Origin: Minisyncoccota bacterium
GTDB taxonomy: Bacteria > Patescibacteriota > Minisyncoccia > JBAYJV01
Assembly (NCBI GenBank): GCA_041664925.1
Contig: JBAYJV010000001.1
Span: 125,845 to 189,844 of the forward strand
Direction: 5' to 3'
DNA: 64,000 nt
This document shows, piece after piece, positions 1,701 through 10,875 of the stretch. Position 1 is the stretch's first letter, and each line of letters starts with the position of its first letter. The notes beneath the pieces were generated by a model. The model did no database searches, was not told the DNA's origin, and saw nothing but the letters and a program-made list of their open reading frames with translations. The translations under genes and the position numbers were made by a program.

Positions 1701-2534
1701 TTATAAATCAACACCTAGTTCTCTGAGGGCTTGCTCAGCTTCCTCTTGATTGGGTGCTTTTCCGTGCCATTCCCATTTATTTTCCATAAAACTTACGCCT
1801 TTACCTGGAATCGTTTTGGCTAAAACCACTTTTGGTCCACTATCAAATTGTCTTGATCGCTCCAGTGCCGACAAAATTTCTTCTGGAACATGACCATCAA
1901 CCTCAATAACATTCCAGCCAAAATTTTGATATTTAGTCTTTAGAGATTCTATTGGCATAATTTGAGAAACATCACCGCTAAGCTGGATAGCATTTCGATC
2001 AACAATAACATTGAGATTTGATAATTTATATTTTGAGGCAAGCATTATCGCTTCCCAAGTTGATCCTTCCTGATGTTCTCCGTCTGAAGTTATACACCAA
2101 ACTTGATAATTTTTATTATTAAATCTTGCCGCCAAACTCATGCCACAAGCAACGGAAAGGCCATGCCCTAACGATCCGCTCGATGCTTCAATAATTGGCA
2201 GATTCTTTTTTGCCGGATGTCCTTGAAGAGGGCTTCCAAATTGCCTTAATTTTGCTAAGTCTTCAATCGGAAAATACCCTGATCGTGCTAATGTTGCATA
2301 AAGAATCGGACAAATATGACCGTTAGATAAAATAACTCGCTCCCGATCTTCCCAATTTGGATCTTTTAGATCATGGGACAAAACTTTAAAATAAAGAACT
2401 GCAAAAATATCAGCCATACCTAAAGAACCAGCCGGATGCCCGGAACCAGCCAAAGAAATCATTTTTATAACATCCTGCCTTAAAAGATTAGCAGTCTCTT
2501 TTATTTGATTGATTGAATAGTCAAATGGATTCAC
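1701..2534 (-). CDS. transketolase, N-terminal (thiamine-diphosphate-binding) subunit
   Basis: 277 aa with GHPAGSLGMADIF and SDGEHQEG (GDG-type TPP motif). The split two-gene transketolase arrangement is known from archaea and several reduced bacterial lineages. Confidence 0.85.
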   Translation of the reverse strand: MNPFDYSINQIKETANLLRQDVIKMISLAGSGHPAGSLGMADIFAVLYFKVLSHDLKDPNWEDRERVILSNGHICPILYATLARSGYFPIEDLAKLRQFGSPLQGHPAKKNLPIIEASSGSLGHGLSVACGMSLAARFNNKNYQVWCITSDGEHQEGSTWEAIMLASKYKLSNLNVIVDRNAIQLSGDVSQIMPIESLKTKYQNFGWNVIEVDGHVPEEILSALERSRQFDSGPKVVLAKTIPGKGVSFMENKWEWHGKAPNQEEAEQALRELGVDL

Positions 2535-2570
2535 TTTTAAATAAGATTAATTTTAAATAAACAATATCTA

Positions 2571-3224
2571 TTATATCATGATTTGTAATTTCTTAATTGC
2601 ATTTTCCAGCGATTTCTCCTTCCACAAAAAACTATTAACATAAACTCGATCAGCTCCAGCATTGGTTATTGCTTTAATGCTTTCGTCATTTACTCCGCCG
2701 TCCACGCTAATAATCAAATCTTTTTTTAAATTTTTAAGAAAATTGATTTTTGTTAAAACATCGGCTTGAAATGCTTGTCCTTTTTTTCCCGGATTAACGG
2801 AAAGCAACAAAACCTCATCAATCCTTGAAAGATAATCAATAATATGACTTGGATCGGTTTCTGGATTAATCGCTATTCCAACACCTATGTCGTGCGCCTT
2901 GATTCTCTTTATTAAATTATTTATAGCAAATCCTCTCGTCTTTTTTTTAATACTCAAGAATGATTCGTAATGAAAGATGATTTTTTTAAATCCCAATTCT
3001 TTTAATTGATCAATAATTGTCCACGGATTTTTCACCATAATGTGTGCCTCTAGATCAGTCTCTGTAGATATTTTCTTAAAACCATCTAAATCTCCTGATT
3101 TTTCTTTAACGAAAAAACCATCGCCAAAATCAATTTGGGCTTTTTTGAAATACGACTCAAGTTTTTTTATTTTCTTTTCAATTTTAGAAAAATTCTTTTC
3201 TAAAACTGCCGGAATAATTTCCAT
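2571..3224 (-). CDS. rpe: ribulose-phosphate 3-epimerase-like
   Basis: 217 aa with SVNPGKKGQ and DGGVN motifs typical of Rpe TIM barrels. It sits in an operon with tkt, rpiB and gap. Confidence 0.65.
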   Translation of the reverse strand: MEIIPAVLEKNFSKIEKKIKKLESYFKKAQIDFGDGFFVKEKSGDLDGFKKISTETDLEAHIMVKNPWTIIDQLKELGFKKIIFHYESFLSIKKKTRGFAINNLIKRIKAHDIGVGIAINPETDPSHIIDYLSRIDEVLLLSVNPGKKGQAFQADVLTKINFLKNLKKDLIISVDGGVNDESIKAITNAGADRVYVNSFLWKEKSLENAIKKLQIMI

Positions 3225-3268: not shown

Positions 3269-4606
3269 TTATCTAATCCCCATTGAAGAAATTCCTGTTC
3301 CAAACAAGGTTGCCAATACTACAACCATTATAATTCCTAAAATCAATAAACTTACAATTGTCACGACAAAAACCCAAACCCCTTTTGCTACGCCATGTTT
3401 AATTCCAAAGTAAATCGAAGGACCGAAAACAAGCGCTAGGATGATAATTCCCTCCAATAGAACAAAGAGAAGAACCACAAGGGTGTTATATTGATAACTA
3501 ATATTGCTCTGAATAACCTGAATTAATAATGATCCTAGTATTCCCACTACAATAGTACTAAGGGCCGCACCAACACCACTCATAATTATTTTTAATGGCA
3601 AAAGATGGTTTTTGTTAGTTTTTGATATTTTCTCTGCTCTTTTTTTGGCTCGCTTGATTAAAAACCACACCAAGAAACTAACACTTGCTAAGAAGATTAA
3701 AATTCCCAAAATCCAACCAATAATTGCCCATTTATGAAGAGCGAAACGGCTCTCTGCGTATTTTCCTTCAACAGTAAAACTTTCCCAAGGATCAAGCCCT
3801 GAAGTTGTTTTTACATAACCTGAAGCATAAGTGATTTGATTAGAGAAAGTAGTTAGCGCTTGATTGGCTACACCTGCCGCTTCTGGAGCCATTGACTTGA
3901 AAGCGGTGTCATAAGTTGAACGATATTGGGTTTGCGCTTGACCGCCGTCTAGATAAAGTCCCTCCTGAACATCAACGGCTACCCGAACTTGATCTATGTC
4001 GTAAGAGGCCTTAATTGTTTCAAATTTAAAATTAAAAACACCAGCCGATTTCTTGGCATAATTGGGTACTTTATAATAGAGCAAAATCCCAGCTTGCCCT
4101 TGTTCATCAATTGGTTTTTTAAGTTCTATCGTGTACTTAACTGAATTTGAAAGTTCTTCTACTTGAGGCTCGAGAGTATAATAGAGCGGATCCCAGGTTT
4201 TTACCTGCCATCGCCAGTCGGAACATTTTTGTTCATATTTGAGACACCCACCGCTACTCATTTCTGTACAAACATTCGGTTCATATTGATAACAATACTG
4301 TTCTTTTTGATAAAACTCTTCTACGATTTTGATTAATCTAATATCAACTCCCGGGACTTCGACAACTGTTGAATTAATTTGATCTTGACCACTATTTTGT
4401 AAAAGAAGTTTTGCTGCCACAGTCGCTTCGCCCTCGCCATCAAAAACAACAGAATAATATTGGTTTTGACCAAAAATTGTACCATCAGTACTGGGCATAA
4501 TGTCTGGTACAGCCACACTATTAGTTACTTGCGCAGCGCCAACACTAGCGCCAAATCCAAAAATCGTAACCAAGCATATTGCCAAGAATAAAAATTTTTT
4601 TCTCAT
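3269..4606 (-). CDS. membrane protein of unknown function (signal peptide, ~300-aa extracytoplasmic domain, multi-pass C-terminal TM region)
   Basis: 445 aa. The N-terminus MRKKFLFLAICLVTIFGFGASVGAA is a signal peptide. The C-terminal 150 aa consists of hydrophobic helices. Confidence 0.5.
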   Translation of the reverse strand: MRKKFLFLAICLVTIFGFGASVGAAQVTNSVAVPDIMPSTDGTIFGQNQYYSVVFDGEGEATVAAKLLLQNSGQDQINSTVVEVPGVDIRLIKIVEEFYQKEQYCYQYEPNVCTEMSSGGCLKYEQKCSDWRWQVKTWDPLYYTLEPQVEELSNSVKYTIELKKPIDEQGQAGILLYYKVPNYAKKSAGVFNFKFETIKASYDIDQVRVAVDVQEGLYLDGGQAQTQYRSTYDTAFKSMAPEAAGVANQALTTFSNQITYASGYVKTTSGLDPWESFTVEGKYAESRFALHKWAIIGWILGILIFLASVSFLVWFLIKRAKKRAEKISKTNKNHLLPLKIIMSGVGAALSTIVVGILGSLLIQVIQSNISYQYNTLVVLLFVLLEGIIILALVFGPSIYFGIKHGVAKGVWVFVVTIVSLLILGIIMVVVLATLFGTGISSMGIR

Positions 4607-5679: not shown

Positions 5680-6717
5680 TCATGAATTGATCGTCATAAG
5701 GTGTCCGACGCGAATCACATGTTCAAGTAAGGAGACTGTGTATCCCCATTCATTGTCATACCAAATAAGCACTTTCACTAAGTCACCATCTACTATTTTC
5801 GTTGATTTTAAATCAACGATCGCTGGGTATGGATCTTTTATGATATCGGTTGAAACCAATTCTTCGTCGCTGGTTTTTACAATACCTTTCCAGCGCGGTT
5901 CCTTTTCGGCCTCTTTGAGAATATTATTAATTTCTTCAACACTAGTAATTTTTGACGCGACAAAAGTAACATCAGCGATTGATCCGCAAACCACCGGAAC
6001 CCTGATCGCCAGACCATCAAATTTTCCTTTAAGGGCAGGCAAGGCATCGCCCGTGGCAATTGCAGCGCCAGTAGAAGATGGACCCAAGTTGACTGCCGCC
6101 GCTCGTCCTCGTCTTAAATCTTTAGTATCGGGTCGATCAACAATGCCTTGAGTAGCGGTATAAGCATGGACTGTATTTAAAATTGCTTTCTTTATTCCTA
6201 GTTTTTCAGATAAAATTGCCACTACAGGAGCAATAGCATTGGTTGTGCAAGAAGCATTGGAGGTAATCGCAGATAAACCATCTTTGAAATCTTCGTCATT
6301 GACGCCAATTAAAACTTGCTGACCCCCACTACCCTTTGCTGGAGCAGTAATAATAACTCTTTTGGCGCCAGCTTTTAAATGAGCGCCTGCCTTTTCATAA
6401 TCAGTAAAAACGCCAGTTGATTCGATAACTACGTCTACTCCTAAATCTCCCCATGGTAATTTTTCAATTTCCTTTTCTGTTAAGCTTAATATTTTTTTAC
6501 CATCGACTTCTAAATAGTTCGATTGTCCCTCACTAATTGCCTTCACATTTTTTTCATAACGACCATAAACGCTGTCATATTTTAAAAGATAAGCGAGCGT
6601 TTCATCATCAGTTAAATCATTGATTGCGACAATCTCAATGTCCGGTTTCTCTAAAGCCAACTTAAGAAAACAACGACCGATACGACCAAAACCATTAATA
6701 GCAATTTTTATAGGCAT
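5680..6717 (-). CDS. gap: glyceraldehyde-3-phosphate dehydrogenase, type I
   Basis: INGFGRIGR NAD-binding motif and SNASCTTN active-site motif. The start was moved to the internal Met (MPIKIAINGFGRIGR), codon 9 of the listed ORF. Confidence 0.85.
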   Translation of the reverse strand: MPIKIAINGFGRIGRCFLKLALEKPDIEIVAINDLTDDETLAYLLKYDSVYGRYEKNVKAISEGQSNYLEVDGKKILSLTEKEIEKLPWGDLGVDVVIESTGVFTDYEKAGAHLKAGAKRVIITAPAKGSGGQQVLIGVNDEDFKDGLSAITSNASCTTNAIAPVVAILSEKLGIKKAILNTVHAYTATQGIVDRPDTKDLRRGRAAAVNLGPSSTGAAIATGDALPALKGKFDGLAIRVPVVCGSIADVTFVASKITSVEEINNILKEAEKEPRWKGIVKTSDEELVSTDIIKDPYPAIVDLKSTKIVDGDLVKVLIWYDNEWGYTVSLLEHVIRVGHLMTINS

Positions 6718-6871
6718 AATACTAATAATCACAAATAACAAAAACCATAGCGTTTCCGTCTAAATAGATTATACACTAAAAAATAGATACTTTTAAGTGG
6801 ATAAAAAAACGGCCAAAAAATAAGTTATTTTTAAGCAATATTTTGAATTGAAGCAAAATTTGCTAAAATAC

Positions 6872-6899
6872 TTGACAAACTTTCTGTATCTGCTATAAT
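6872..6899 (+). promoter_or_regulatory. consensus sigma70 promoter (TTGACA, 16-nt spacer, TGcTATAAT) driving small RNA 1
   Basis: Sequence ACTTGACAAACTTTCTGTATCTGCTATAATG. It is near-identical over 31 nt to the promoter at 8890..8917. Confidence 0.7.
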
Positions 6900-6905
6900 G
6901 ATTAT

Positions 6906-7027
6906 GTTGGTGAGATTGCATAAGAAATGTAATGAACAACCAGCCTTGGGTCGAGGTCACCCTTGGAAAAAGGGGATGCGCTCACCAACACCAGAGTCCG
7001 ACTTTTGAAGAAGGACTCTTTTTTTAA
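6906..7027 (+). ncRNA. candidate small structured RNA (~120 nt), family unassigned (a 4.5S/SRP-like hairpin is one possibility)
   Basis: It starts about 7 nt after the -10 box. A 9-bp closing stem (GTTGGTGAG with CTCACCAAC) encloses a GC-rich hairpin with a GGAA-containing apical loop. It ends in an intrinsic terminator (AGAGTCC, 13-nt loop, GGACTCT, T7) at 6993..7026. There is no ORF. Confidence 0.45.
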
Positions 7028-7135
7028 TATTATTATTAAAATATAATAAAAGCCCAAACCCTAGCATATCATCAGATATTCATTGACAAAACATTATAAT
7101 TCGAATAAGATTTGATTAGTTTTCAAGGAGGAACA

Positions 7136-7426
7136 ATGAATCGACTACGCAAGTTCTTTAAGAAATTTTCTCAGCCTGGTAGAAAAATGAGTTTTACGAT
7201 TACTTTTTCAGAAAAAAGTTTTGCCAGACTAAAAGTTCTTTTGAATTTGAGCGAGTTGAAAGATGTATCAGAACTTCTTCTTCGTGCCTTAGGTTGGTAC
7301 GATATGGCCGTTGAATGTCTTTCGAACGGTGGAACGATAACTTTAGAAAATACCGATGGATCCGAAGAAACAATGCGCAATTACCAAGACGTGATTGAGT
7401 GGCTCAATCGCAATGGTATAAAGTAA
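7136..7426 (+). CDS. ribbon-helix-helix (RHH/CopG-Arc-like) small DNA-binding protein, hypothetical
   Basis: 96 aa. AAGGAGG RBS lies 6 nt upstream, so the start was moved from the listed 7112. SFTITFSEKSFARLKVLLNLSELKDVSELLLRAL fits a beta-strand plus two helices, as in an RHH fold. An upstream TTGACA, 17-nt spacer and TAAGAT form a promoter-like site at about 7085..7113. Confidence 0.45.
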   Translation: MNRLRKFFKKFSQPGRKMSFTITFSEKSFARLKVLLNLSELKDVSELLLRALGWYDMAVECLSNGGTITLENTDGSEETMRNYQDVIEWLNRNGIK

Positions 7427-7457
7427 AAAAACGACCCTTAACGGGTCGTCTTTTTTT
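7427..7457. terminator. bidirectional intrinsic terminator
   Basis: AAAAAACGACCC, loop TTAAC, GGGTCGTCTTTTTTT. It lies between convergent genes 7136..7426(+) and 7464..7658(-). Confidence 0.7.
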
Positions 7458-7463
7458 ATATTG

Positions 7464-7658
7464 TTATTTCTTGAAATCGTCTTTGAGTTTTTCTTTGAGA
7501 TAAACGCACAATCCTTCGCAATCAAGAATCTGCGGACAAATACCGCAGCATCTCGGTAAAACGCATTTGCGATGATTTTGCGACCTGTCTTTGCACATCT
7601 TCCATAATTGTTTTTCGCATTTTTCTGATAACGCAAAATAATCTTTTACTTTTGCCAT
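7464..7658 (-). CDS. cysteine-rich small protein (8 Cys, CxxxC...CC.IC....C...C), putative metal-binding
   Basis: 64 aa, MAKVKDYFALSEKCEKQLWKMCKDRSQNHRKCVLPRCCGICPQILDCEGLCVY. It has no recognisable family. Confidence 0.4.
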   Translation of the reverse strand: MAKVKDYFALSEKCEKQLWKMCKDRSQNHRKCVLPRCCGICPQILDCEGLCVYLKEKLKDDFKK

Positions 7659-7993
7659 AGCTTTTTTAACTGAGCCAAATTTTTTACAGAAAAAACCGAC
7701 TTACCATTCTCGTAAAATTTCCATTCTTTGTCTTCTAAAATAAACTTAAAAAAAGATTTGCCATCTTCCCTAAAATTCTGATCCGTTCTTTTGCCTTCAA
7801 AATATTCGATAGAATATTCATCACCGCTGCTTTCATAAGTTTGTTCTCCGTAATTTTTCAGAATTTCAATCGCTTCTTTTTTGAATTCATCAAAATTGAC
7901 TTCTGTACCAACTGGAGAAATCGAATCATATCTTGATAATCCGCAACAGCCAATTCTTAAATTTTTAAACTCAACTCGTCTTAAAATAAACAT
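7646..7993 (-). CDS. hypothetical protein
   Basis: 115 aa. It overlaps the downstream Cys-rich ORF by 13 nt, so they are probably co-transcribed. Confidence 0.4.
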   Translation of the reverse strand: MFILRRVEFKNLRIGCCGLSRYDSISPVGTEVNFDEFKKEAIEILKNYGEQTYESSGDEYSIEYFEGKRTDQNFREDGKSFFKFILEDKEWKFYENGKSVFSVKNLAQLKKLWQK

Positions 7994-8008
7994 GGTTAAT
8001 TAAAATCA

Positions 8009-8380
8009 TTATACTTTTATTCTTTCTACTTCTATTGCTACTACACCGAACTTTTTTTGCTGTTCATCGGTATAGAATTGTTTGTATTTTTCAAGACCCT
8101 GCTCAATTGTTTCAACATCGGGCAATATTTTTTTAATCGGTTCTTTTTCGAGCATTTCTTTTATAGAAATATATGCTTGCACTCTTTTTACGAACACTTC
8201 TACTGATTCTGTTTCTTGATTATTATAAACGATTATACGATCTCCTGGTTTTATAAATTGATATTTTCCTTTCCTAATTCGCCCTTCAATTGTTTTTTGA
8301 CCATTCTTAACAAATGTAAAATATGGTTCAGTTCGATGATTGTGATAGGTGGTAAAATTAGTTTCAGATATCTTTTTCAT
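8009..8380 (-). CDS. ASCH-domain (PUA-like) protein, YqfB-like
   Basis: 123 aa with ...KNGQKTIEGRIRKGKY..KPGDRI... matching the ASCH core (GxKTxExR ... GD). Its size matches E. coli YqfB, an ac4C amidohydrolase. Confidence 0.55.
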   Translation of the reverse strand: MKKISETNFTTYHNHRTEPYFTFVKNGQKTIEGRIRKGKYQFIKPGDRIIVYNNQETESVEVFVKRVQAYISIKEMLEKEPIKKILPDVETIEQGLEKYKQFYTDEQQKKFGVVAIEVERIKV

Positions 8381-8387
8381 ATTACTA

Positions 8388-8819
8388 TTATTTTTTTATT
8401 CTCGAAATATCATCTATTGTAATCCATGCCGACATTGCACCAAGTCCCGTTTTGTCAATTTCGAATGGCTTAATTTCTTGTGAATTCTTTAAGAATATAA
8501 GCATGCAATATTTTTTGTTTTTGAATCTTTCAAAAAATTCGGGAATTTTTTCTTTTTCTATACCATCTTCTTTGCCATATTCGTCTAATATTTCTTTTAC
8601 TTTTTTAGGGGTCAAATCGGAAAATTGAACGACATCGCTAACTTCCGCTTTTATATTTACTGGTTCTCCCGAATCTTTAAAATAAATCGTTTCTCTTTTT
8701 TTGATATTATTCCAAGGTTTATATTTTACCGAATACCAGCGCGATTCAATCTTTTTCTGACCGCTCAGAATTTTATCTGTAAGACCCCAAGATTTTCTCA
8801 TTATTGCTACATGTTCCAT
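8388..8819 (-). CDS. ASCH-domain (PUA-like) protein
   Basis: 143 aa with WGLTDKILSGQKKIESRW matching the ASCH N-terminal beta-hairpin motif. It is in tandem with the previous ASCH gene. Confidence 0.5.
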   Translation of the reverse strand: MEHVAIMRKSWGLTDKILSGQKKIESRWYSVKYKPWNNIKKRETIYFKDSGEPVNIKAEVSDVVQFSDLTPKKVKEILDEYGKEDGIEKEKIPEFFERFKNKKYCMLIFLKNSQEIKPFEIDKTGLGAMSAWITIDDISRIKK

Positions 8820-8889
8820 ATTTCTGACTTTACATAAACTCTTTAACCTTTAATTTTTATCTAAATTTACACATTTTTACCAAAAACAC

Positions 8890-8917
8890 TTGACAAACTT
8901 TATGTATATGCTATAAT
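8890..8917 (+). promoter_or_regulatory. consensus sigma70 promoter (TTGACA, 16-nt spacer, TGcTATAAT) driving small RNA 2
   Basis: Sequence ACTTGACAAACTTTATGTATATGCTATAATG. It differs at 2 of 31 positions from the promoter at 6872..6899. Confidence 0.7.
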
Positions 8918-8923
8918 GGTAGT

Positions 8924-9112
8924 ATTGTCACATAGCTCAAGATATAGCAGAGCGGCGGCCCAAAAACCGTGTCAGACCGATGGGGCATAGGGGCAGTGCT
9001 GGCAAGCACATAGGCCCTCAAAACCTAGGTCGCGAGATAATGCATCTCGTTGTGTGAGTCGAAACTCACTGTGGCAGCACAGCCGTATGGTTCGCCCAGC
9101 GGCTTTTTTTTA
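8924..9112 (+). ncRNA. candidate structured RNA (~190 nt), family unassigned
   Basis: The segment is GC-rich (>50% against a ~33% background) and has no ORF. It has multiple perfect hairpins (GCGAGAT, aatgc, ATCTCGt; GTGAGT, cgaaa, ACTCAC; CTGTG, gcag, CACAG). It is followed by GGC plus T8 at 9101..9112. It contains AUAGGGGCAG, reminiscent of the RNase P P4-P5 junction, but it is far too short for a bacterial RNase P RNA. Confidence 0.45.
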
Positions 9113-9164
9113 TCAATAGTCGCTATATTGTTATTAATATAGATATACAAATTGCCTACAAAGA

Positions 9165-9192
9165 TTGACTTTTTTTATCAATATGCTATAAT
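9165..9192 (+). promoter_or_regulatory. sigma70 promoter (TTGACT, 16-nt spacer, TGcTATAAT) for the small-ORF pair
   Basis: GATTGACTTTTTTTATCAATATGCTATAATATAATC. It shares the extended -10 TGCTATAAT with the two sRNA promoters. Confidence 0.6.
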
Positions 9193-9222
9193 ATAATCAT
9201 ACGGTAAAAGGAGGTAGCGGTC

Positions 9223-9420
9223 ATGTCTCTATTAGATGAGTATCGTAATTGTTCTACCAATCCCCCGACCGATGTTGCGAAAAGGATTTTGTTTGATGTT
9301 ATCGACGATATTACTAGTCGAAGCGGATGGGATTGGGACGACGATCCAGTAGTTGATGACGAAACGAAAGAGGAAATCCTAGAAACAAATCTAGAAAAAA
9401 TCCAACGCCATCTGCAGTAA
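9223..9420 (+). CDS. small highly acidic protein (65 aa), hypothetical
   Basis: Strong RBS AAAGGAGG 7 nt upstream. About 17 D/E against 7 K/R/H, with a DDDPVVDDETKEE stretch. Its GC content is clearly above the local background. Confidence 0.5.
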   Translation: MSLLDEYRNCSTNPPTDVAKRILFDVIDDITSRSGWDWDDDPVVDDETKEEILETNLEKIQRHLQ

Positions 9421-9453
9421 GAATAAATTAGGGTCAATGAAAGGAGGACAGTT

Positions 9454-9663
9454 ATGGATGATACTTGGAGTGTTAAGTGTCAAAGTTGTGGCGTTGAGTA
9501 CAAGGTAGAAGCATCTGGAGAACAAGAAGCTATCAAAGCTGCTAGGAAAGAACACGAACGAGTGAATGCAGAAGCGACGGCTTTTCGGTGCGATCTTGGT
9601 CCCTTCATGACTCACGCGTTCAATCTCACTCACCCTGATCATCCATGCGCTCCGAAAGAATAG
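9454..9663 (+). CDS. small Cys-containing (zinc-ribbon-like CxxC) protein, hypothetical
   Basis: 69 aa. RBS AAAGGAGG upstream. CQSC...C...HPDHPC. It is GC-rich like its neighbour. Confidence 0.5.
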   Translation: MDDTWSVKCQSCGVEYKVEASGEQEAIKAARKEHERVNAEATAFRCDLGPFMTHAFNLTHPDHPCAPKE

Positions 9664-9698
9664 TGAACCAATATCGCTACTCATCAAGTTCGCCTCGA

Positions 9699-9732
9699 GT
9701 CCCATTCAGCGTGTCTGTTTGGGACTTTTTTT
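9699..9732. terminator. bidirectional intrinsic terminator
   Basis: GTCCCA, loop TTCAGCGTGTCTGTT, TGGGAC then T7. It lies between 9454..9663(+) and 9731..10180(-). Confidence 0.65.
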
Positions 9733-10180
9733 ATTTATTATGAAATTTTTTATCCTTAGGAATGTCGTAATAAGTTATTCCTTTCTCATGGCTTTCAATG
9801 GATATTCTGCAAATATCAAATAACGGCTGAGGAAGGTTATTTAAATCATACCAATCCCACGACTCGCATTTTTCAGGCTCTAAAACTTTCGGCTCGCCGC
9901 TTTTGAAGTCCGCCAATAATCCGATATGAACATAATGTTTTGGCGCATAAGCGATAACATTGGCTAAAAATTGGAAACGGATATTTTTAATTTCAATGCC
10001 GCATTCTTCGCGAACTTCTCTTCTCGCACAATCTTCAAAAGATTCCATATATTCAAGATGTCCTCCGGGAAAGGCATATTCTCCTTCGCCATGCGACCCT
10101 TTTCTTTTTCCAAGTAAAAATTTCCCATCCTTAAAAATCATCACGCCAACTCCAACTTTTGGTTTATCGTTTTGATCCAT
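9731..10180 (-). CDS. NUDIX hydrolase
   Basis: Nudix box GGHLEYMESFEDCARREVREECG (Gx5Ex7REuxEExG). Confidence 0.8.
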   Translation of the reverse strand: MDQNDKPKVGVGVMIFKDGKFLLGKRKGSHGEGEYAFPGGHLEYMESFEDCARREVREECGIEIKNIRFQFLANVIAYAPKHYVHIGLLADFKSGEPKVLEPEKCESWDWYDLNNLPQPLFDICRISIESHEKGITYYDIPKDKKFHNK

Positions 10181-10195
10181 AAATTTAGGTTATAA

Positions 10196-10225
10196 AAATT
10201 TACGAAGTCCGACTTCGTAAAAATT
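10196..10225 (-). terminator. intrinsic terminator (perfect 10-bp stem)
   Basis: TTACGAAGTC, loop CG, GACTTCGTAA flanked by A/T runs. It lies downstream of 10224..10865(-). Confidence 0.6.
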
Positions 10226-10865
10226 ATAGTTTAATTTCTTTTCCATTTCCAACTAATTTTACTTCCTCATCTTGAACTAATATTGCCTGTTCGTCGGTAA
10301 GTATTCTAACTGGATATTTTGATGTCTTGATTTTTTCTTTTAATAATTCTTGATATTCAGGTTTGTAGTGCGCTGTGACCAAAAAAGGCACTAAATTAAG
10401 AGCTGTGAAATCAGTAATTCCATAATGATTATATTTGTCCTGATGCTTCCAAGTAGCCATCTCTATCGTCGGACAAGCAATGTATGAACCAGCGCTCGAT
10501 CCAATATATATAATTCCATTTCTTACTAATTCTTTTATCACTTTATCAAAGCCACTCTCAAGAACAACTTTTAATAAATAGAAGGTATTGCCTCCTTCAA
10601 CATGAATAATTTCTTTATTTTTTAGTATGTCTTCTAATTCTTGTTCATTTTTGCCCTCTATATCTATCTCTTTAAAATTATAATTGAGTTCTTTCATTCG
10701 TTTCCTGTGTCGCTCTAGATAAGAAATATCAGAAACGCCTTTTGAGGCAGTTGTAATATAAGCTATCTTCATTTGAGTGATCGGTTTTGGCAAAAAAGAC
10801 AAATCCCCATCAGTCAAAAATTTTCCGCTTGATGTTAATAATATAGTTTGCATATTTTGTACCAC
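10224..10865 (-). CDS. peptidase S51 (dipeptidase E / PepE-like)
   Basis: 213 aa with a GGNTFYLL motif and IGSSAG nucleophile-elbow region typical of the S51 family. Confidence 0.6.
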   Translation of the reverse strand: MVQNMQTILLTSSGKFLTDGDLSFLPKPITQMKIAYITTASKGVSDISYLERHRKRMKELNYNFKEIDIEGKNEQELEDILKNKEIIHVEGGNTFYLLKVVLESGFDKVIKELVRNGIIYIGSSAGSYIACPTIEMATWKHQDKYNHYGITDFTALNLVPFLVTAHYKPEYQELLKEKIKTSKYPVRILTDEQAILVQDEEVKLVGNGKEIKL

Positions 10866-10875
10866 CTAGTCAGAA

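Follow-up and report, generated by a model that had tools for sequence, protein, structure and literature searches.

We examined a 64,000-nucleotide (nt) stretch of a Minisyncoccota genome (assembly GCA_041664925.1, contig JBAYJV010000001.1; hereafter the window), in which two predicted small RNA (sRNA) genes, RNA1 and RNA2, lie between the GAPDH and RpiB genes on one side and the NUDIX, peptidase S51, and SecA genes on the other. The GAPDH protein (5680-6717, minus strand) is 100% identical to one from a metagenome-assembled genome listed at NCBI as 'Candidatus Paceibacterota bacterium'. In a scan of GTDB proteins its nearest relatives are Patescibacteria, at no more than 60% identity. Contigs from related genomes, referred to by L numbers, were obtained through close homologues of GAPDH or of ORF96, the open reading frame (ORF) that lies 3' of RNA1. 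The GAPDH-SecA interval (6742-10875 in the window) is a hypervariable island whose gene content is different in every relative (L083, L086, L088, L090, L109). Across these genomes it holds HicA, PIN, Gp49/HTH, GIY-YIG, DUF3800, NUDIX, and ASCH/DUF3850 genes, along with genes for large PKD/CARDB proteins. The neighbors of RNA1 and RNA2 in the window's island are small ORFs without a known family and two ASCH-domain genes.

The two RNAs follow nearly identical promoters. The RNA1 promoter (ACTTGACAAACTTTCTGTATCTGCTATAATG, 6870-6900) and the RNA2 promoter (ACTTGACAAACTTTATGTATATGCTATAATG, 8888-8918) are the same at 29 of 31 nt, and no such pair occurred in 100 shuffles. This agrees with an earlier note on the sequence, except that its coordinate for the second site was off by one. 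Both have the form TTGACA-16-TGnTATAAT and match the consensus hexamers at 12 of 12 positions; nowhere else in the 64 kb does such a match come with an extended -10 TG. The repeat is longer than 31 nt: 6846-6909 and 8864-8927 (both plus strand) are 75% identical over 64 nt, from about 25 nt 5' of the -35 through the first bases of the transcript. In the copy at RNA1, the -35 TTGACA is at 6872-6877, the TG at 6891-6892, and the -10 TATAAT at 6894-6899; the same elements at RNA2 are found at 8890-8895, 8909-8910, and 8912-8917. To judge from the alignment, the RNA1 promoter repeat is a paralogous copy of the RNA2 promoter. The closest match to the RNA1 promoter is the RNA2 promoter of L088/L090, to which 6865-6905 is 91% identical (41-43 nt). 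Across three lineages the RNA2 promoter itself varies at a single spacer position.

RNA1 is predicted to span about 120 nt (6906-7025, plus strand). Its fold consists of a 9-bp closing helix (6906-6914/6981-6989) around three hairpins (6915-6933, 6943-6957, and 6960-6974), followed by ACC and an intrinsic terminator (6993-7025) with a hairpin at 6993-7019 and a U-run of seven to eight. The GGAAA loop is on the third hairpin, so the description of RNA1 as one long hairpin with a GGAA apex does not hold. The minimum free energy (MFE) for 6906-7026 is -43.1 kcal/mol (z = -4.0), and 0 of 200 shuffles were as stable. RNA2 is larger, at about 189 nt (8924-9112, plus strand), with a closing helix (8925-8932/9070-9077) around five stems (8935-8953, 8955-8970, 8975-9031, 9032-9050, and 9054-9069), then CAC and an intrinsic terminator (9081-9112) made up of a hairpin at 9081-9104 and U8. 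This terminator is invariant in the three lineages. The MFE for 8924-9114 is -67.8 kcal/mol (z = -2.7). GC content reaches 48% in the RNA1 region and 59% in the RNA2 region, against a window mean of 36.5%. The earlier picture of GC-rich, ORF-free, hairpin-rich transcripts of ~120 and ~190 nt ending in terminators is thus borne out by the folds, the GC content, and the runs of seven to eight U; the ORFs within them are all of 36 amino acids (aa) or fewer and lack a ribosome-binding site (RBS).

RNA2 and its promoter were also found in two further lineages, one including L087, L088, L102, and L103 and the other L090, L091, L092, and L098. Among the three lineages, RNA2 is 92-94% identical in pairwise comparisons over 189-191 nt. 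Fourfold-degenerate sites of GAPDH, RpiB, and SecA from the same genomes are only 61-66% identical, and first and second codon positions 91-97%. The difference between RNA2 and the fourfold sites is highly significant (binomial P ~1e-18 to 1e-21); the level of constraint on RNA2 and its promoter is thus that of replacement sites in core enzymes. Changes fall more often in unpaired columns of the alignment (14/77) than in paired ones (7/114; Fisher P = 0.017). Five of the seven paired-column changes retain a G-U or Watson-Crick pair, and the other two break it. Overall, drift is seen in the hairpin loops and conservation in the stems and internal loops, whereas a seed-pairing sRNA shows the reverse. 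These comparisons establish constraint on the sequence of RNA2 and suggest constraint on its structure, as would be expected of a functional RNA under purifying selection. The check for conservation and covariation suggested in the earlier note thus gave a mixed outcome, with RNA2 conserved in two more lineages, no compensatory pairs among its three variants, and no conservation of RNA1.

Outside of these lineages, a covariance model built for RNA2 (R1) had no match in 680 kb from eighty GTDB loci collected by the GAPDH protein scan; these loci are too distant, as the best GAPDH match among them is only 60% identical. When metagenomes were scanned with an 18-mer that is invariant in RNA2, the output consisted of the two known relative lineages, random matches, and a single unrelated gene that shares the terminator. 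In that last case (L105, 5176-5205), the RNA2 terminator hairpin CAGCCGTATGGTTCGCCCAGCGGCTTTTTT recurs unchanged after an unrelated ORF, on a contig that comes from a groundwater metagenome and belongs to another organism within the candidate phyla radiation (CPR). Neither the promoter, RNA1, nor RNA2 was found in viral contigs and phage genomes.

Homology between the window and its relatives is confined to a 260-nt module (8854-9113, plus strand) that runs from about 35 nt 5' of the -35, including an upstream A/T element, through promoter and RNA to the terminator U-run. The module is 93% identical to that of L088, and the flanks on both sides are unrelated. In the window it is followed by the promoter of ORF65; in the relatives another RNA unit (RNA3, below) comes next, and after that a TPR gene in convergent orientation. 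The ORF96 of L114 is in the same 90% cluster as that of L087, and the flanks align well in L114, but the whole ~260-nt module is missing. Comparison of L114 (2289-2330) with L087 (6516-6790) gives a precise module gap, and in L087 each end of the module has a short T-rich repeat (TTTTTTTAT); whether the gap arose by insertion or by deletion is not distinguishable. The GAPDH-SecA island of L109, whose GAPDH is in the same 90% cluster, has none of the RNAs, and in the more distant relatives L083 and L086 they are absent within +/-10 kb. RNA2 is thus an accessory module rather than a housekeeping gene, with the absences seen at this locus and a copy elsewhere in those genomes possible. Since the module is missing in L114 and absent from the L109 island, a universal housekeeping role is unlikely.

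RNA1 has a much narrower range. Among all related loci examined, the window and two Logan contigs identical to it (L001 and L002) were the only ones to carry RNA1; the ORF96 orthologues of L088 and L090 lack it. Its terminator core, AGTCCGACTT, is also found in terminator hairpins at 10199-10221 of the window and 9847-9869 of L090. The hairpin at these two positions, bidirectional and with the core GAAGTCCGACTTC, recurs at ~4140-4165 of L109; these are unrelated intergenic sites in the genus, and the RNA1 terminator has AGTCCGACTT in common with this recurrent hairpin. Between the GAPDH gene and ORF96 of L090 (9880-9910) there is a simple hairpin, AUAUGUUGGAGGUGAGACCUCCAACAUAU, that resembles the RNA1 closing helix (UAUGUUGGUGAG...CUCACCAACA) and may be its precursor. 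Given the single-species range, the copied promoter, the likeness to the L090 hairpin, and the shared terminator core, RNA1 appears to be a young unit, specific to this species and assembled recently, in which a copy of the RNA2 promoter has been put to new use.

A third unit with this type of promoter, RNA3, is present in the relatives but absent from the window. It is ~200 nt long, lies 170 nt 3' of RNA2 (L087 6962-7205; L088 9150-9410; L090 11464-11714; L102 381-625), and consists of a promoter (AAAACACTTGACAAGTTTTTTAGATATGATAGTAT), a GC-rich region, and a terminator. RNA3 sequences from the L087 and L090 lineages are 90% identical with one compensatory pair, and have no Rfam match. In all of the DNA gathered, the promoter motif AAAAYACTTGACAA...TAnnAT occurs only 5' of RNA1, RNA2, and RNA3, so that the notion of different RNAs behind the same promoter has gained a further member. 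What the three have in common is the promoter and an architecture in which a helix closes the ends; RNA2 and the RNA3 of L087 also share a 13-nt hairpin (GUGCUGGCAAGCA), which is not retained in the RNA3 of L090. RNA1 and RNA3 obtain only about 0-5 bits under model R1, and the transcribed parts are not detectably homologous. With these low scores, and with GUGCUGGCAAGCA not retained in L090, paralogy of the transcribed parts was rejected as unproven.

We also considered whether the RNAs belong to known families. Rfam 15 gave no match at the gathering score anywhere in the window. With the threshold relaxed to E<=10, searches of 6700-9300 and of each RNA alone (6900-7030, 131 nt; 8915-9115, 201 nt) produced only chance matches of the terminator type, as did a search of 115 kb of related loci. 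ARAGORN predicted 0 tRNA or tmRNA genes in the window. The models that had been proposed as checks (SRP_bact, 6S, RNaseP, and tmRNA) therefore match neither RNA1 nor RNA2. Still, divergent RNase P RNAs that score under the Rfam thresholds are documented for CPR bacteria (PMC8172020), and one could imagine either RNA as a very divergent or reduced housekeeping RNA: RNA2 would then be a 6S RNA or an RNase P RNA reduced to its C-domain, and RNA1 a 4.5S RNA of the signal recognition particle (SRP). RNA2 is similar in size to the type T RNase P RNA of Pyrobaculum, is a strong stand-alone gene, and has a superficially similar helix order that can be read as P2-P3-P5/7-P8-P15-P18-P2'. Its AUAGGG(G)CAG-plus-hairpin stretch (GCAUAGGGGCAGUGCUGGCAAGCAC) resembles CCAUAGGGCAGGGUGCCAGGUAACGCC in the P7/P8 region of the E. 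coli rnpB that we fetched, and a 9-bp pairing (GACCGAUGG / CCGU(A)UGGUU) could mimic P4, which the L088 G-to-A change at column 58 would fit. However, none of the RNase P models (RF00010, RF00011, RF00373, RF02357) reaches ~9.5 bits or E<=10 on isolated RNA2, and in the other direction R1 scores at most 4.6 bits on E. coli rnpB. The conserved regions CR-I (GAGGAAAGUCC) and CR-V (ACAGAAnCCGGCUUA), both present in E. coli rnpB, are missing from RNA2, which has GUGUCAGACCGAUGG and GCACAGCCGUAUGGUUCG instead, so the resemblance to CR-I claimed in the earlier note is not sustained. The 3' strand of the supposed P4 sits in the terminator hairpin that also serves the unrelated L105 gene, and the module is dispensable at the locus in the close relatives L114 and L109. 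A 6S RNA (SsrS) would share with RNA2 a length of ~190 nt, a strong promoter, a non-essential role, sometimes paralogous copies, and poor sequence conservation between phyla, but 6S (RF00013) is rod-shaped, its two ends closing a central bubble, whereas RNA2 folds into a five-stem junction. RNA1 has about the length of 4.5S RNA and a GGAA-containing hairpin loop, but it lacks the domain IV motif, has no match to RF00169 or RF01854 even at E<=10, forms a three-hairpin junction, and is missing from all related loci; the SRP-like reading of RNA1 is thus not supported. More generally, no SRP, 6S, or tmRNA model matched the isolated 131- and 201-nt stretches at E<=10, and the MFE folds of RNA1 and RNA2, as well as the RNA2 consensus fold, are multi-branched rather than rod-like as in 6S and SRP RNAs. 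Strong promoters are typical of stable RNAs, yet a GC-rich island with a consensus promoter in an AT-rich genome is not by itself a sign of a housekeeping RNA. We find the divergent-housekeeping explanation very improbable and would give even less credence to RNA2 being an extremely reduced catalytic RNA. The alternative posed in the earlier note, housekeeping RNAs or novel sRNAs of the lineage, is thereby narrowed: family searches and module absences go against the former, and the latter is favored for RNA2 by its constraint across three lineages and is plausible for RNA1.

Other explanations concern the surroundings of the RNAs. They could be cis-acting leaders (riboswitches or attenuators), RNA1 for ORF96 and RNA2 for ORF65-ORF69, as each has a riboswitch-like layout with a closing helix, a multi-helix junction, an intrinsic terminator, and a co-oriented ORF 110-120 nt 3'. 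Yet the downstream ORFs have promoter-like sites of their own (7083-7111 and 9165-9192), ORF96 does without RNA1 in L088 and L090, and RNA2 in the relatives is followed by RNA3 and the convergent gene, not by ORF65. With no evident anti-terminator alternative and no riboswitch family match in Rfam, a leader function appears improbable. Small proteins are more doubtful still. The RNA1 unit contains a near-leaderless 36-aa ORF (6898-7008) that begins at the predicted 5' end and the RNA2 unit a 25-aa ORF (8980-9057), both on the transcribed strand, but neither has a Shine-Dalgarno sequence. The 36-aa peptide found one spurious repetitive match among 1.84 billion representatives, and most lineage changes in the 25-aa ORF replace residues (in L090: K>E, I>R, G>S, I>M, M>T, V>A). 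A second adenine-variable copy of either RNA, as the template of a diversity-generating retroelement would have, was not present in the window. The island itself suggests that the RNAs might be parts of a mobile or defense-type system (an RNA antitoxin, a decoy, or the noncoding RNA of an uncharacterized system) that move as promoter-RNA-terminator cassettes. The toxin-antitoxin and other genes of an interval that differs in every relative, the non-homologous flanks and presence/absence polymorphism of the RNA2 module, the T-rich repeats at its ends, and the single promoter type common to three different RNAs would all suit such a system. On the other hand, PADLOC had no match for seven ORFs of the window's island, and no reverse transcriptase, integrase, or transposase lies nearby in the window or the relatives; the RNA of a retron or of a defense-associated reverse transcriptase would have a reverse transcriptase gene next to it. 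Tandem repeats of the ToxI type are absent from 6700-9700, where the only array (12 nt, 2.5 copies) is inside ORF65; there are no terminal inverted repeats bounding the modules and just a single copy per locus, unlike a miniature inverted-repeat transposable element. Viral contigs and phage genomes gave no match, and a plain deletion between short repeats might account for the RNA2 indel. We therefore regard mobile or defense cassettes as a possible but unlikely explanation. About the same low chance attaches to RNA1 being a non-functional by-product, formed when a duplicated strong promoter landed beside an existing intergenic hairpin and terminator. Its confinement to one species, its copied promoter, the L090 hairpin at the same locus, and the recurrent terminator core would all fit, but its fold is far more stable than those of shuffled sequences, and a GC-rich insert of 66 nt in a genome of 36% GC is not what one would expect of junk.

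The explanation that we favor, and consider fairly probable, is that RNA1 and RNA2 are stand-alone, lineage-restricted, accessory sRNA genes of Candidatus Paceibacterota (CPR) in the GAPDH-SecA island, belonging to no described RNA family. RNA2 has what is expected of a stand-alone sRNA gene, with a promoter, a terminator, an intergenic position, and constraint, while RNA1 has the promoter, terminator, and fold only. As orphan, genus-restricted sRNA genes of narrow distribution, they are a known kind of gene. Like orphan trans-acting bacterial sRNAs, they are intergenic, 100-200 nt long, accessory, and limited to a narrow clade, each with its own sigma-70 promoter and Rho-independent terminator. 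They differ from such sRNAs in being more structured and GC-rich, in having variable hairpin loops, and in that one promoter type serves three RNAs. Each unit would be transcribed strongly and constitutively from a near-consensus sigma-70 promoter of one paralogous family (AAAAYACTTGACAA...TGnTAnnAT), and the first bases of each transcript would form the 5' strand of the closing helix, followed by internal hairpins and the intrinsic terminator. In the likeliest mode of action, which taken by itself is still somewhat less probable than not, the RNAs would be abundant and would act in trans through their fold, as protein-binding or scaffold RNAs, and not by way of an antisense seed or a role as cis leaders. 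The adjacent ASCH-family genes, which PHROG labels 'RNA-binding', are only a lead as to a partner for RNA2, since L109 and L114 have DUF3850 genes but no RNA2 beside them.

Several points count against our preferred explanation of lineage-restricted sRNA genes. The transcripts, their ends, and their abundance are predictions. As for antisense targets, duplex energies with fifty-nine translation-initiation regions of the window were within the range of shuffled sequences, with nothing beyond z = -2.6; the RNA1-RNA2 duplex energy was also within shuffle range. Among the three variants of RNA2 there are zero compensatory pairs, which is explained by only three variants existing; for this reason its structure is consistent with the data but not proven. 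The high identity of RNA2 could in part come from recent horizontal movement of the module and not from selection alone. RNA1 has no homologue at any related locus or in the searches run, and its case for a function consists of the fold z-score and the GC-rich 66-nt core. Finally, within this genome the search for canonical rnpB, ffs, and ssrS is confined to the window.

Other features of the island and window complete the description. ORF96 (7136-7426, plus strand), 3' of RNA1, has its own promoter-like site (7083-7111) and is kept in relatives without RNA1. An ASCH-domain gene (8388-8819, minus strand) is divergent from RNA2, and a non-homologous DUF3850/ASCH gene is at the same position in the relatives. 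The only PHROG matches among the seven island ORFs were to an ASCH-type 'RNA-binding protein'. The third promoter listed in the earlier note (9165-9192, plus strand) is present as TTGACT-16-TATAAT with a TG (TTGACT-16-TGCTATAAT) and aligns in register with the RNA1 and RNA2 promoters at 71%. Rather than an RNA gene, it drives ORF65 (65 aa, 9223-9420, plus strand), which is preceded by an RBS, and ORF69 (9454-9663, plus strand). An exact 14-nt direct repeat (TTTTTTTATCAATA) is found in the RNA2 terminator tail (9105-9118) and in the spacer of this third promoter (9170-9183). At 7464-7658 (minus strand) there is a 64-aa cysteine-rich ORF (CVLPRCCGICPQILDCEGLC) without a Pfam, PADLOC, or PHROG family, overlapping the start of a 115-aa ORF. 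In intergenic spacers of the L109 island (2529-3060 and 4114-4342), a short hairpin repeat (TGTCATTCCCGCGAAAGCGGGAATC / GTCATTCCGTATTTAATACGGAAT) with the look of repetitive extragenic palindromes is present in several copies. Far from the island, the window has a further near-consensus promoter with TGCTATAAC (59029-59001, minus strand) 5' of a 407-aa ORF (57747-58970, minus strand), and a GC-rich stretch (59097-59283) after a 1083-aa gene, with two strong hairpin terminators and a AGCGAAGGAGG duplication.

Apart from rRNA, tRNA, and divergent RNase P RNA, we found almost nothing in the literature about small RNAs of CPR/Patescibacteria, whether regulatory or structural, and no work specific to the group that dealt with covariation or structured RNA. 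RNA2 makes a clean candidate: its promoter and terminator are perfect, its sequence is strongly constrained, and its presence/absence polymorphism is well defined. A bolder reading, to which we assign a low probability, is that RNA1, RNA2, and RNA3 form an undescribed set of promoter-RNA-terminator cassettes that are gained, lost, and reshuffled in a toxin-antitoxin-rich island of Paceibacteria. They would then be accessory structured RNAs, such as RNA antitoxins, decoys, or protein sponges tied to the ASCH, NUDIX, and toxin-antitoxin genes. If this were true, they would be among the first functional accessory noncoding RNAs described for CPR bacteria, and a link to the island's toxin-antitoxin or nucleotide-modifying genes would offer a view of the accessory RNA biology of an uncultured phylum.

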